64,000 nucleotides of DNA from Thermoanaerobaculia bacterium. GTDB taxonomy: Bacteria; Acidobacteriota; Thermoanaerobaculia; Multivoradales; Multivoraceae. The position numbers were made by a program, and so were the translations under genes. A model generated the notes under the pieces. That model worked only from the letters and a program-made list of their open reading frames with translations, made no database searches and had not been told where the DNA came from. Below are positions 38,586 through 42,939 of this stretch, piece by piece (position 1 is the first letter of the stretch; each line of letters starts with the position of its first letter). The stretch spans positions 3,008,001-3,072,000 of the forward strand of contig OY761158.1 of NCBI GenBank assembly GCA_963664405.1, given 5' to 3'.

Positions 38586-38981
38586 GTGCGCTGGGAGAAG
38601 CTGATGTTTGACATGAAGGTGAGAGTCCTTCGTCACCAAAGCCGTAGCAGGCAGGTGAGAACCGAGTCTTGCGGGCGCGCCGGTAACGTCGTGTTCGAAG
38701 CGTAGACAGGAGTCGTGCAGGGTGCAGGAAGTCAGCCCCGAAAGCACCAAAGTCGTGGAGGCCGAGCGTGTTCGTGAGCGCGAAGGCAGTATGAGCATCG
38801 CCGCTATCGCGAGGCGGAGTCGCTCCACCGGGGTCGAGGACTGTGTCACGTACGAAAGGTCGACATCGGAACCCAGGAGACCCGACCGGGTCCGACGGGC
38901 TGGTCCCCGTCGGGGGCGTCGCGCGAGGGAGAACCACAGCGCGTCGCTGAGCTGAGGTCGGGAGTCGGACTGGCTGATAGT
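38586..38981 (+). mobile_element. Group II intron A, 5' part (domain I), interrupted
   Basis: GTGCG start and DI hallmarks (GGTGAGAGTCC, GGTAAC..GAAGCGTAGACAG, GCCGA..GAAGGCA, GGAAC.CAGGAGA, GGAGTCGGA..ATAGT). Confidence 0.75.
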
Positions 38982-40371
38982 GTGCGCCAGGCAGCGCGTT
39001 GATCGGGAGGGTTTGAGTCCCTCCGGCGCTCGGATGAGGGGCGTCGTATCCAAAAGCGGGGGTAATGCCTCGCTGGCCGAAGAGGGAGACAGGTATGGAG
39101 AGCTCTAAACGGGCACGAAGGGGAAACCCGGAAACAGCCAAGGGTGACCTGGAGCCAGCTCTCGTGAGACTTCGGAGGGCAGGGTGTCCACCGCGAGGTG
39201 GGATCCGAAGGGCTTGCGGAGAAGTACCGGGCCGTAGTCGATGGGGGCCACCCCGAAGACGAACCGGTCGGCCAAAGGTGGGACAAGGTCGAGCCTGCAG
39301 TATGGAGGCGAAGGCATTTTTCATCCACCCACCGCACCAAGGTGTTTGCGGACGGCACGGTACGGAAGATCAGCGTGTGACCCTGGGAGAGCTCGTCGTG
39401 TCTGCGGGTGGCACCGCGGTAACGGACCCTATAAGCGCAAGCGAAGTGGGAAGGGATGCGCGGCGAGCAGTCGGACGGTCGAGTAGTACTTCAAGCGCGG
39501 TGAAAGCCGTGTGACCGCGAGGAGCGGCAGCTGTGTGAGCTGGGGAAGGCGGCCGGCGAAGACGGTAGGGGAGAGAAGGAAGGCGAGCGAGTAAGGCGGT
39601 CGAGGCTGGATAGTTCCATGAGTGAAAAACCCGAACATCGACAGCCGAGGAGACTGGCTGACTGGATCAACCCGTCGGGAGAGAGGAAGATTCACTCTCT
39701 GATCGACAAGGTGTACAAGCGCAAGAACCTGGAGATCGCCTGGGAACGCGTCAAGTCCAATCGGGGCGCGGGCGGCATCGACGGCCAGAGCATCGAGGAG
39801 TTCTCCGAGGGGCTCTCTGAGCACCTCGACAGACTTCACGAGGAGCTGTGTCGTGATGAGTACCGACCGCAACCCGTGAGGCAGAAGCGGATCCCGAAGG
39901 CGGGCCAGCCGGGGAAGTACCGCACGTTGGGCATCCCCACGGTCTATGACCGTGTCTGCCAGCAAGCGATGCTGAATCGGTTGGAGCCGATCTTCGAGCC
40001 GGTATTCGATGCTGCCAGCTTCGGATACCGTCGAGGGCGATCCCAACACGGGGCTCTGCGCAAGGTTTGGAAGGAGATCCAATCGGGCAAGGAGTGGATC
40101 GTGGACGCGGACCTGAGGGATTTCTTCGGGAGCGTGGACCACGAGAAGCTGTTGACGCTCGTGAGCCAACGGGTTTCCGACGGTCGGGTGCTGAGGGTTT
40201 TGCGCTCAGTACTCAAAGCCGGGAGCTACGGGGAGGGTCGCCTGTTTCCGACCGAGCGTGGGACTCCGCAGGGCGGGGTCGTATCGCCCTTGCTGAGCAA
40301 CATTCTTCTGACTCCTTTTGATCAGGAGATGCGACGCAGAGGGTTTCGACTCACGCGGTATGCCGACGACT
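38982..40371 (+). mobile_element. Group II intron B, 5' part with N-terminal RT, nested in intron A
   Basis: GTGCG start, structured RNA region, then an RT ORF from 39618. Confidence 0.75.
39618..40371 (+). pseudogene. ltrA: Group II intron RT/maturase N-half, cut directly after YADD
   Basis: GAGGIDG, RTLGIPTVYDRVCQQA, SFGYRRGRS, DADLRDFF, GTPQGGVVSPLLSNI and TRYADD. Confidence 0.9.
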
Positions 40372-42253
40372 GTGCGCCACGACGGCGCGAAAGGAGTACT
40401 CATGTAATTGGGTGTTCTAGAGCAGCCTTGCTACACGAGAGATGAGGGTGGGCCCCTCGGAGCCGGCATGCAGGTGCAGGCTTCAAACCGCCACGAGCTG
40501 CGCGGGTCAAGAGCCCGGGTGGTGAGCGTCGCTGGAAAAGGCGGGACAAGATTCCGTCAGGTGTGGATCGAGGAGACGAGCGCAAGCGAACCGTCGATGA
40601 CCTGTCGAAAGCGTAGGGACGACGTCAAAACCGGAGGGAGTCGTTACTCCGGGAGGAGTCTGGGTGTTACCTGCCTACAGCCCAGGCGGCGTCCGGCAGC
40701 AAGGCGGCGTGACCTCGATGCAGGCTCTCGTGTGGAACGTGGGAACCTGTCGTCCCGATGCGAAGGGAGAATTCCAAGTGGTCGACCCATGAGGAAGAGA
40801 GTACCGATGCGGGGCACAGGGGCGGAGTCGCGCGTAGTAGTGAGGAAGGTCCTGTAATGGGGCCGGAGCGAAGGCGCGGCACCAACCAGCCGGGTCCGGA
40901 GGCCAACCGGCAACGGGAGGAGTCTTTGGCGAAGGCAAAGCCCTTTCGCATTCCCAAGCGGTGGGTTTGGGAGGCGTACAAGCGGGTAAAGGCAAACCGA
41001 GGCGCGGCAGGCGTGGATGGGCAGTCGTTGGCAGCTTTCGAGGAGCGTCTGAGAGACAATCTGTACAAGCTGTGGAATCGGCTGTCATCAGGGAGCTACA
41101 TGCCGCCGCCGGTCAAGCGGGTAGAGATCCCGAAGCCCGGCGGTGGAACGCGTCCCCTGGGTGTGCCAACCGTGGCGGATCGGATCGCGCAAACGGTCGT
41201 GAAGAGGATCCTGGAGGCCGAGGTGGAGACACACTTCCACCCAGACTCCTACGGGTACCGGCCCGGGAAATCAGCGCTTGGTGCGTTGGGTGTGGCGCGG
41301 CAGCGATGCTGGCGCTACGACTGGGTTTTGGATCTCGATGTCAAAGGTTTTTTCGACGCGATCGATCACGATCTTCTGCTGCGGGCGGTGCGTTACCACA
41401 CGGATTGCCGTTGGGTGCTGCTCTACATTGGGCGGTGGCTCCGTGCCCCCGTTCAGTTGAAGGATGGCACTCTTGAGTCTCGGGAGAGGGGGACTCCCCA
41501 GGGGTCGGTGGTTTCACCACTGCTGGCGAACCTCTTCTTGCACTATGCGTTCGACCGGTGGATGGCGCGTCACCACTCGGACATTCCGTTCGAGAGGTTT
41601 GCTGACGATGCGATCTGCCATTGCCGAACGGCGGAGCAAGCGCAGAGACTGAAGCAGGAGCTCGCGGGTCGCTTTGCGGCATGTGGGCTTGAGCTGCATC
41701 CGCGCAAGACGAAGATCGTCTACTGCAAGGATGACGACCGACGGGGGACGTACGAGAACGAGAAGTTTGACTTCTTGGGCTACACGTTTCGTGCTCGGCG
41801 ATCGAAGAATCGCTGGGGTAAGTACTTCGTCAACTTCAGTCCCGGCGTGAGCAACGCGGCGGGTAAAGCGATGCGTCAGACCATTCGGGGCTGGCGTCTC
41901 GACTGTCGGATCGACAAGCAAGTGGACGACCTGGCTCGGATGTTCAATCCGATCGTCCAGGGCTGGATCAACTACTACGGTCGGTACTACAAGTCGGCGC
42001 TCTATCCGTCCCTTTGCCATCTTGATCGTCATCTGGCTCGCTGGGCGAGGGCGAAATACAAACGTCTGCGGAGACATCGAAGGAGATCGGATCAGTGGGT
42101 GCGGAAAGTCCGTGACCGGGATCCACATCTCTTTGCGCATTGGCGCTTCATGTCGTCTCAGGCGAAGGCTGGATGGTAAGAGCCGGATGAGTGGAGACAT
42201 TCACGTCCGGTTCTGTGAGGGGGTGGGGGTGAGATTCCCCCGCCCTACTCGAC
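40372..42253 (+). mobile_element. Group II intron C, complete (1882 nt, class D/RmInt1-like)
   Basis: GTGCG 5' end, EBS1 loop, DV GAGCCGGATGAGTGGAGACATTCACGTCCGGTTC, DVI ending CTACTCGAC. Confidence 0.92.
40926..42179 (+). CDS. ltrA: Group II intron reverse transcriptase/maturase without endonuclease domain
   Basis: TTG start after GGAGG. KPFRIPK..AYKRVKANRGAAGVD, GTPQGSVVSPLLANL, FERFADD, FDFLGY, GWINYYG and LFAHW. Confidence 0.93.
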   Translation: MAKAKPFRIPKRWVWEAYKRVKANRGAAGVDGQSLAAFEERLRDNLYKLWNRLSSGSYMPPPVKRVEIPKPGGGTRPLGVPTVADRIAQTVVKRILEAEVETHFHPDSYGYRPGKSALGALGVARQRCWRYDWVLDLDVKGFFDAIDHDLLLRAVRYHTDCRWVLLYIGRWLRAPVQLKDGTLESRERGTPQGSVVSPLLANLFLHYAFDRWMARHHSDIPFERFADDAICHCRTAEQAQRLKQELAGRFAACGLELHPRKTKIVYCKDDDRRGTYENEKFDFLGYTFRARRSKNRWGKYFVNFSPGVSNAAGKAMRQTIRGWRLDCRIDKQVDDLARMFNPIVQGWINYYGRYYKSALYPSLCHLDRHLARWARAKYKRLRRHRRRSDQWVRKVRDRDPHLFAHWRFMSSQAKAGW

Positions 42254-42837
42254 TCGTGATGGGCTTTCAGTACCGGGACGATGCAGAAAGACTGCGGGTG
42301 GCTTTGGAGAAACGCCTTCGGGAGTTTTCCCTGGAGCTCCACTCGGAGAAGACGCGGCTGATCGAATTCGGTCGGCTTCCAGCCCTGCGCCGACAGCGGC
42401 TCGGGCAGCGTCGCCCCTCGACCTTCGCCTTCCTGGGCCTCACGCACTACTGTGGGTGGACTCGGGATGGGCGATTCGTCTGCAAGCAAAGGACGCAGTC
42501 GACGCGATTGTCGCGGAAGCTGCGGGAGGTCAAGGTGGAAGCTCGGCGCCGGATGCATCGGCCGGTGGCGGAACAGCATCGCTGGCTTACCAGTGTGCTG
42601 CGAGGTCACTATCGGTACTACGGTCTGCCTGGCAACTCCAAAGCTCTGGCCTCGTTTCGCAACCAGGTGAGCCAGATCTGGTACCGGTCGCTTCGAAGAC
42701 GAAGCCAACGCGGCCTGCTCTGGCTCGCCTACAACGAGATCCTGCGCCGACTGCCACTCTTGCCAGCTCGTGTTGATGGCTGCGAGAAAGCGCATCCCGT
42801 TGGCTGCGAGCGCAGTTTCCGGGATGGAGTGAGCTGA
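42254..42837 (+). pseudogene. Group II intron RT C-half (class E-like), no DV/DVI after it
   Basis: (F)VMGFQ..DAE, LELHSEKTRLIEFGR, TFAFLGLTHYCG, LRGHYRYYG and LRRRSQR. Confidence 0.85.
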
Positions 42838-42939
42838 GGGCTTCGCGACCGCGGGAGAGCTAGCCCTTCTTCAGGAGGGCGGCATCATCCCGCCGGAACG
42901 GCGGTCCGGGTGCGTGGTCCCGGCTCCGGTACCGTTTCC

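Follow-up and report, generated by a model that had tools for sequence, protein, structure and literature searches.

In this study, we analyzed a 64,000-nt stretch of the genome of a Thermoanaerobaculia bacterium (contig OY761158.1, positions 3,008,001 to 3,072,000; hereafter the window, within which positions are numbered unless a genome position is given) and a group II intron, here called C, that lies in the active-site codons of a reverse transcriptase (RT) gene. Four intron types were found nested in one another in this genome by means of Rfam (A4, H6, B and C). The explanation that best accounts for all observations, and which we consider very probable, is that C belongs to a lineage of introns that retrohome to the Tyr-Ala-Asp-Asp (YADD) codons of RT genes, that three pairings of the intron RNA select the target, and that the host of C in the window arose by recombination. 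C is a member of this YADD-homing lineage; introns of this kind are already published, and their targeting was described in 2003-2008. C therefore adds one YADD-homing member in a new host to an intron lineage that parasitizes retroelements, and comparison of intron and flank sequences makes its targeting mechanism well supported.

Intron C and its guide sequences

The boundaries of C were fixed by three copies in the genome, which are 100% identical over 1882 nt and lose identity exactly at both ends, together with the Rfam matches. At the 5' junction, ...CGG TAT GCC GAC GAC T is followed by GTGCGCC..., whereas the intron ends in ...CTACTCGAC (42253 being its last base) and the exon then continues as TC GTG ATG GGC. 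If joined without C, the exons would read in frame ...R Y A D D/F V M G F... (here and below, a slash within a sequence marks the insertion point), with the codon next to YADD cut behind its first base, and the predicted spliced junction is GACGACT/TCGTGATG. A previous reading of the DNA by a model without database searches (the sequence-only reading) had placed C in TAT GCC GAC GAC T/TC (YADD-F), with which both the sequence and the ends of the identical copies agree; the span that it gave, 40359-42270, covers C and, in addition, the last 13 nt of the 5' exon and the first 17 nt of the 3' exon. C has the features of a group II intron: a GTGCG start, domains V and VI (D5/D6) ahead of the 3' end, a match to the domain I-IV fold, and an open reading frame (ORF) for an RT with a maturase domain (P0001), which overlaps the stretch immediately before D5. 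Since Pfam found RVT_1 and GIIM only, and no endonuclease domain, in P0001, the protein is considered to be endonuclease-minus (En-minus). C is an intact group II intron that was probably mobile in recent times.

To compare intron loops with insertion sites, we used relatives whose RTs are 60-78% identical to P0001, namely the best 80 of more than 570 loci from named genomes and the best 80 of more than 570 from metagenomes. Among these 160 loci, 124 intron 5' ends and 120 3' ends were mapped, and 37 nhmmer matches that were partial or ran into contig ends remained unmapped. The exon-binding sites EBS1 and EBS2 in domain I were then compared with the intron-binding sites IBS1 and IBS2 in the 5' exon. 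In the window copy, the site pairs with EBS1 at 6/6 and with EBS2 at 5/5 positions. Based on 58 unique intron/flank pairs drawn from the first 80 loci, the EBS1 columns pair with exon positions -1 to -6 at 5.38 of 6 positions (2000 shuffles: 3.62 +/- 0.15, maximum 4.09), and the EBS2 columns pair with positions -9 to -13 at 4.29 of 5 (2000 shuffles: 3.05 +/- 0.13, maximum 3.48). The domain I alignment contains individual cases of such covariation: a ...GACGAAG flank occurs with EBS1 CTTCGT, a ...GACCACC flank with EBS1 GGTGGT, and a flank ...ATCCGTAA with intron TTACGGAT. RNAalifold analysis of 47 diverse sequences, picked from 107 distinct ones, placed EBS1 in a hairpin loop with compensatory changes at four of the five stem pairs (each in 6 to 11 of the 47 sequences; the outermost pair has none) and EBS2 in a loop closed by GUCG/CGAC. 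Thus, both loops that the sequence-only reading had proposed, including EBS1 as the exact complement of IBS1, stay in place when domain I is folded and homologs are compared. Another candidate for EBS2, CCGGCAT at 40463-40469 (complement of ATGCCG), was rejected, because covariation and fold favor GCGTA.

A scan of every domain I column against the first base of the 3' exon provided a candidate for EBS3. Intron position 330 forms a Watson-Crick pair with exon position +1 in 84 of 107 unique introns (shuffles: 55.9 +/- 3.6; 0 of 5000 reach this count), and this column is taken as the putative EBS3 in view of these alignments. An EBS2 together with an EBS3-type single-base pairing at exon +1 would fit IIB-like introns. 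Membership in class C (IIC), whose introns have no EBS2 and target terminator or attC hairpins, was ruled out by the covarying EBS2 and the coding-motif target.

In the proposed mechanism, the excised C RNA would recognize the sense strand of the target DNA via three pairings. The Tyr and Ala codons (UAYGC) would be bound by EBS2 (GCGUA), and the two Asp codons plus one base (AYGAY(N)) by EBS1 ((A)GUCGU). The A of EBS3 would pair with the base that comes next, in most cases the U in second position of the hydrophobic codon following YADD; reverse splicing would then take place after the first base of this codon. Each G of EBS1 or EBS2 that faces the third base of a Tyr or Asp codon could pair with either C or U, and the four-fold degenerate third base of the Ala codon would be left unpaired. 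With these wobble positions and the skipped Ala base, the RNA would read the protein motif through synonymous variation.

Insertion sites of the relatives and the published lineage

The 124 mapped copies and the three copies of this genome, 127 in total, correspond to 119 unique 40-nt 5' flanks. More than half of these insertion sites (63/119) are located at [Y/F/C]ADD+1, comprising 55 at YADD+1, seven at FADD+1 and one at CADD+1. The remaining flanks include K-Y-x-D-H of IS66 transposases (7), W-H/Y-L-D-E (H or Y at the second position) of IS6/IS240 transposases (6), K-Y-E-E-V/I (V or I at the end) of rve (IS3-type) transposases (3) and other sites (40). When uniqueness was defined by the 16-nt 5' flank plus the 3' exon, which gives 64 YADD-type sites instead of the 63 obtained with 40-nt 5' flanks, the translated 5' exon aligned to RT over at least 60 aa at 45 of the 64. 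The YADD-homing lineage is widespread, its sites coming from genomes as well as metagenomes and its named hosts spanning 7 phyla.

The guide loops and the sites agree closely. Exactly GCGTA and AGTCGT were observed in 54 of the 67 YADD-site copies (the three copies of this genome counted separately), and 67 of the 69 mapped copies with YADD-type EBS1/EBS2 sit at [Y/F/C]ADD+1. One of the two exceptions is the second copy of a tandem (L045_2), and the other has a rearranged 5' flank but a 3' exon that still reads TTGTGG (L119). The claim of the sequence-only reading that C is aimed at the YADD codons of other RTs was confirmed in two RT genes of this genome and at 63/119 sites, albeit as something already published, and tabulation of the homologs did not place carriers of such loops in non-RT targets. 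At the used sites, the Tyr codon is TAT in 33 and TAC in 23 cases, the Ala codon is GCC in 32, GCG in 20, GCT in 7 and GCA in 5, the first Asp codon is GAC in 34 and GAT in 30, and the second is GAC in 39 and GAT in 25; base -1 is T (31), C (13), A (11) or G (9), and base +1 is T (41), G (11) or C (8). The lineage appears to illustrate how RNA can guide the recognition of a conserved protein-coding motif in nature, with all synonymous spellings of YADD being tolerated.

The same target has been reported for several known introns. Tourasse and Kolsto (2008; PMC2504315, section 13), who cite Dai and Zimmerly (2003) for the RT-motif specificity, described B.th.I3 (Bacillus thuringiensis sv. israelensis), M.a.I5 (Methanosarcina acetivorans), UA.I3 and P.l.I2 (Photorhabdus luminescens) as introns of ~1.8 kb, B-like and En-minus, that insert in the RT catalytic motif (RYADD), B.th.I3 sitting in an RT gene at the target AGGTATGCTGATGACT. 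A passage of a 2018 review repeats this insertion habit (PMC6199540). C resembles these introns in size and in an RT without an endonuclease domain; its IBS1 and IBS2 are the (R)YADD codons, a pattern also seen in the B.th.I3 target, and, like them, it makes twintrons in the RT ORFs of other introns. On the other hand, C differs in its host organism and in its own RT, which reads FADD. The host gene of C is an intron RT, whereas that of B.th.I3 is retron-like, and an EBS3-IBS3 contribution was seen for the C lineage, whereas site conservation is limited to IBS1 and IBS2 in PMC2504315. In the part of Toro and Martinez-Abarca (2013; PMC3552965) that deals with group g2, the members given are Mx.xa.I1, W.e.I5, Ma.sp.I2, Sg.ce.I1 and B.th.I3, and FADD in RT domain 5 is the trait. 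C has this trait (FERFADDA in P0001). However, 53 of the 67 first relatives read YADD; the FADD motif by itself is therefore insufficient to assign C to g2.

A further known system is RmInt1 of Sinorhizobium meliloti, an En-minus intron that homes into an insertion sequence (IS) transposase gene by EBS1, EBS2 and EBS3 recognition. C is similar in size, also En-minus, and also uses EBS1-EBS3 on a target inside another mobile element; the target is a transposase gene for RmInt1 and an RT gene for C, although transposase genes (IS66, IS6/IS240 and IS3) are the targets of sister lineages of C.

Several points weigh against the explanation as a whole. First, the grouping of C with B.th.I3, M.a.I5, UA.I3 and P.l.I2 rests on shared features, not on alignment, and none of the four was among the best 80 loci from named genomes. 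Second, the shuffle controls ignore relatedness among the introns, although those for EBS1 and EBS2 are conservative in another respect, since the flank pool consists mostly of YADD sites. Third, synonymous tolerance is deduced from the pairing scheme and the codon counts at used sites, and a wobble 'design' would be a further step from them; likewise, copying presumably takes place at the replication fork, C being without an endonuclease, a step taken from the literature on En-minus introns. Finally, four YADD sites that pair fully with EBS1/EBS2 in RT genes or fragments of the genome are empty: 885,544 (-), 2,680,225 (-), 2,891,943 (+) and 6,215,628 (+), the second and third being copies of intron B and the last pairing through wobbles. 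Thus, the mobility of C is not saturating or may be low.

Other relatives extend the picture beyond RT genes. In close relatives, targeting has shifted to catalytic motifs of transposases: sister lineages with altered EBS1/EBS2 are inserted in motif codons of IS66 (KYxDH/LPLYRQ), IS6/IS240 (after W[HY]LDE) and rve/IS3-type (after KYEEV) transposases, at loci L074, L081, L082, L086, L088, L089, L149; L012-L015, L017, L060, L064; and L072, L146, L159. Pfam analysis of the exon references identified zf-IS66 plus DDE_Tnp_IS66, DDE_Tnp_IS240 and rve. Another sub-lineage lies behind AT-rich, apparently non-coding TTTCAATCCGTAA sites, with EBS1 loops that covary with the site (L024, L041, L042, L049, L050, L056, L057, L108, L111, L128, L143, L154; mostly deltaproteobacterial metagenome-assembled genomes and metagenomes). 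In addition, head-to-tail tandems were observed at L045 (3152-6883), L056 (2303-5966) and L170 (Sinorhizobium meliloti plasmid CP140952.1; 963 and 2824), where the second intron begins directly after the 3' end of the first. Such tandems would be expected if nearly the whole target is in the 5' exon, because an occupied site could then be hit again.

Motif reading, escape and self-avoidance

Two readings go beyond the publications consulted, namely that the guide loops are designed for a protein motif rather than for a nucleotide word and that Tyr-to-Phe changes reflect an escape arms race; we regard both as rather doubtful. In the first, with the variable first base of the following codon lying before the cut, EBS3 would meet the near-invariant U of a hydrophobic codon, and the sister lineages would do likewise on the catalytic motifs of IS66, IS6/IS240 and IS3 transposases. 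In the second, TAY-to-TTY changes in the RTs of YADD-homers and in host RTs (H6-type R-F-A-D-D) would be partial escape mutations, which would account for the 'characteristic FADD' described in group g2. Our literature search found no earlier statement of a wobble-tolerant design or of a link between FADD and YADD-homing, although one may exist. Host RTs of the R-G-D-V-x-x-V-R-[YF]-A-D-D type (H6; L093, L165, L150 and others) include several with FADD at the invaded site, which may represent escape from homers, or chance. The lineage also offers a system in which conflict among mobile elements (Y-to-F escape, nesting and loss by recombination) could be measured.

The sequence-only reading had described C as a specialized hyperparasite of retroelements with built-in self-avoidance. 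While targeting of RT genes stood, self-avoidance did not fare well. It would mean that selection had given the FADD-A codons of C (TTT GCT GAC GAT G/C) their mismatches with EBS2, EBS1 and EBS3, by which copies would be kept from invading each other; such programmed self-avoidance is a hypothesis, not a finding, and in our opinion an unlikely one. The own codons do mismatch both loops, as had been noted: the site pairs with EBS1 at 5/6, EBS2 at 4/5 and EBS3 at 0/1 positions, and the sum (9/12) is under that of all 55 used sites scored (10-12). More generally, used targets score 10, 11 and 12 in 3, 31 and 21 of 55 cases, and own sites score 9, 10 and 11 in 7, 42 and 6 of 55; the own site is below the target in 46/55, and the full score of 12 is reached by 21 targets and by no own site. 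However, because used sites are selected for good pairing, an own site below its target is expected without any selection, and in 48 of the 55 cases the score of the own site is not inferior to that of the weakest used target.

The distribution of own motifs showed a similar balance. A non-Y own motif was present in 24 of the 63 YADD-site copies with a readable motif (22 FADD, including three that are C's own copies, one CADD and one YCDD), compared with only 2 of 56 relatives aimed elsewhere, and FADD is characteristic of group g2, which, in the part of the paper devoted to it, contains the YADD-homer B.th.I3 (Toro and Martinez-Abarca, 2013; PMC3552965). On the other hand, YADD is kept in the own RT of 39 of the 67 YADD-site copies. 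A FastTree phylogeny was built from 114 of the 124 RTs, after dropping ORFs shorter than 380 aa, those without a readable own motif and those with too short a 5' flank. Six of the seven own-motif changes, including all four non-Y gains, fell on YADD-homing branches, and one reversal coincided with a shift to an IS6 target. These branches make up 53% of the tree length, which gives a one-sided binomial p of 0.083 for six of seven changes, and an independent-pairs test (p = 1) had no power. The A, G or I residue after YADD, which causes the -1 and +1 mismatches, is shared with relatives that do not target YADD and is not specific to YADD-homers.

The used sites themselves argue further against self-avoidance. 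A Phe codon is no shield, given that C itself occupies TTT GCT GAC GAC T in the same genome and that FADD accounts for 7/63 unique used sites; CADD accounts for 1/63. Sites of the GAY GAT G/C form are used by relatives with the same EBS1, and one relative with both the same EBS1 and the same EBS2 (L155) is inserted at GAC GAT G/CC. Moreover, RTs of the same family are invaded at L155, L147, L158 and L098 (5' half), where the hosts are 55-78% identical to the inner RT, and an additional case was found at L076.

Copies of C, nesting and the recombinant host

All three copies of C are located in the single 6.78-Mb contig of the genome. The copy at 6.398 Mb has B-type flanks on both sides (5' YADD, 3' W V L T S S), and the copy at 2.677 Mb has H6-type flanks on both sides (5' CGC TTT GCT GAC GAC T, i.e. 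R F A D D; 3' F V M G F). The window copy combines a B-type 5' flank with an H6-type 3' flank. Copies of host B are 97.8-99.6% identical, compared with 100% among the C copies. Since C sits in two different RT genes (B and H6), it was inserted at least twice independently at the same codon. It is highly improbable that C did not home by itself here and that host and intron were copied as a unit, with the shared YADD position going back to a single old insertion: the window and 6.398 Mb copies share the B 5' flank (99.6% identity over 1412 nt) and could be one event, but the third copy interrupts another RT gene, whose 5' flank differs (H6, FADD), some copies of B have an empty site, the C copies are 100% identical within diverged hosts, and dozens of relatives occupy the same codon of unrelated RTs.

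The genomic context suggests how the window copy came to have two kinds of flank. At 2.68 Mb, H6 (RF02005) holds a complete B with an empty YADD site, followed by C in the FADD site of the H6 RT and then by H6 domain V, whereas at 6.398 Mb an A4-type intron (RF02003) holds B, and B holds C. The 1.5 kb that lies between the YADD of B and the FADD of H6 at 2.68 Mb is absent from the window, where the 3' exon (the C-terminal RT fragment Y') shares 90.4% identity over 457 nt with the 3' flank of the H6-hosted copy at 2.68 Mb. C copies in the YADD of B and the FADD of H6, in direct orientation, would have recombined, and the deletion would have left the chimeric host. Recombination between two direct C copies appears to be the simplest reading of the B/H6 chimera, as judged from these flanks. 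The host of the window copy is recombinant, truncated and dead. An intact twintron was rejected in view of the mosaic flanks and the lack of a host D5 downstream of C, none being found by Rfam up to 47000 at E <= 0.1. From the viewpoint of annotation, YADD-homing accounts for RT genes that are split and for RT reading frames that are chimeric in genomes rich in introns. The positions of the features are listed in Table 1.

Table 1. Positions of intron C, its functional elements and the remains of its hosts in the window
Feature	Position	Strand	Details
Intron C	40372..42253	+	1882 nt, GTGCG...CGAC; ends from three identical copies and Rfam RF01999, RF00029
Domain I-IV match, RF01999 group-II-D1D4-2	40444-40562	+	Full length, 108.3 bits (gathering score 36)
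D5/D6 match, RF00029	42178-42253	+	Full length, ends exactly at 42253, 64.7 bits (gathering score 40)
Domain V of C	42180..42213	+	34 nt, from RF00029 alignment
Likely branch-point A, domain VI	42247	+	Deduced from D6 alignment; seventh base from the 3' end
RT/maturase ORF of C, P0001	40857..42179	+	440 aa; Pfam RVT_1 1.6e-39, GIIM 1.2e-16
Own active-site codons of C (FADD-A)	41598..41610	+	TTT GCT GAC GAT G; P0001 motif FERFADDA
EBS1, AGTCGT	40639..40644	+	Loop of hairpin CCGGAG 40631-36 / CTCCGG 40647-52; full loop GGAGTCGTTA
IBS1, ACGACT	40366..40371	+	End of Asp-Asp plus first base of next codon; exact complement of EBS1, covariation
EBS2, GCGTA	40611..40615	+	Loop closed by GTCG/CGAC; covariation and RNAalifold
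IBS2, TATGC	40359..40363	+	Tyr codon plus two bases of Ala codon; pairs with EBS2, covariation
Candidate EBS3, A	40701	+	Intron position 330; pairs with first 3'-exon base
IBS3, T	42254	+	First base of 3' exon
5' part of outermost host intron H6	38586..38981	+	Starts GTGCG, start deduced; homology to the 2.68 Mb H6 copy from ~38577
H6 match, RF02005 group-II-D1D4-6	38622-38843	+	146 bits
5' half of middle intron B, up to YADD codons	38982..40371	+	Start (GTGCG) from BLAST boundary, A4-hosted B copy and intact A4 intron
RT N-terminal ORF of B, P0002	39618-40371	+	Pfam RVT_1 positions 1-155 of 205, stopping at YADD
Weak RF02001 match in B	39187-39376	+	30.9 bits, under gathering score 32
3' exon, C-terminal RT fragment Y'	42254..42710	+	H6-type intron, not B, by flank comparison

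Nested introns of this kind have counterparts elsewhere. A passage of Zimmerly and Semper (2015; PMC4424553) describes arrays in Methanosarcina acetivorans that were formed by repeated site-specific intron-in-intron homing over several levels, with copies removed by homologous recombination. The window copy, which looks like a recombination-deletion product, resembles these arrays, but it is found in a bacterial genome with four intron types (A4, H6, B and C) and with a chimeric RT reading frame left behind. In the Thermosynechococcus elongatus twintrons, as treated in a section of Mohr et al. (2010; PMC2882425), identical inner and diverged outer introns indicate recent independent insertions. 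C likewise enters a conserved site of a mobile intron, and its copies are identical within diverged hosts; however, the inner introns of T. elongatus, according to the same section, are ORF-less and lie between the first two ATGs of the host ORF, whereas C lies at YADD. Furthermore, a search of 40 genomes from the same family or order did not find C but only short matches of at most 79% identity, which suggests that C arrived from outside. Among the relatives, L098 (1742-3608) likewise has a chimeric host: its 5' exon comes from an RT of the same family that shares 77% identity with the inner RT, and its 3' exon is of the SNIYV type, an arrangement similar to that of the recombinant host in the window.

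According to cumulative GC skew, the origin lies near 2.74 Mb (minimum) and the terminus near 6.76 Mb (maximum). The sense strand of all three C copies is co-oriented with fork movement, as expected for En-minus introns, but this proves little, because there are three copies only and their hosts share the bias. Orientation was rejected as the cause of the empty sites, given that the three C copies and the four empty sites are all co-oriented with the fork.

The middle intron was also found at a recurrent site. B is inserted after the same ~22-nt sequence, GGGAGTCGGACTGGCTGATAGT, in both H6 (RF02005) and A4 (RF02003), as seen at 38960-38982 in the window, at 6.396 Mb (L006) and at 2.891 Mb (L007). 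B is thus a second intron-in-intron homer, giving three nesting levels. Finally, two repeats interrupt the host introns: a 155-nt repeat at 42770-42924, with ~30 copies in the genome (94.8-99.4% identity), lies in the H6 tail, and a 478-nt repeat with at least eight full copies lies in the A4 host at 6.396 Mb. Both may be similar to miniature inverted-repeat transposable elements.

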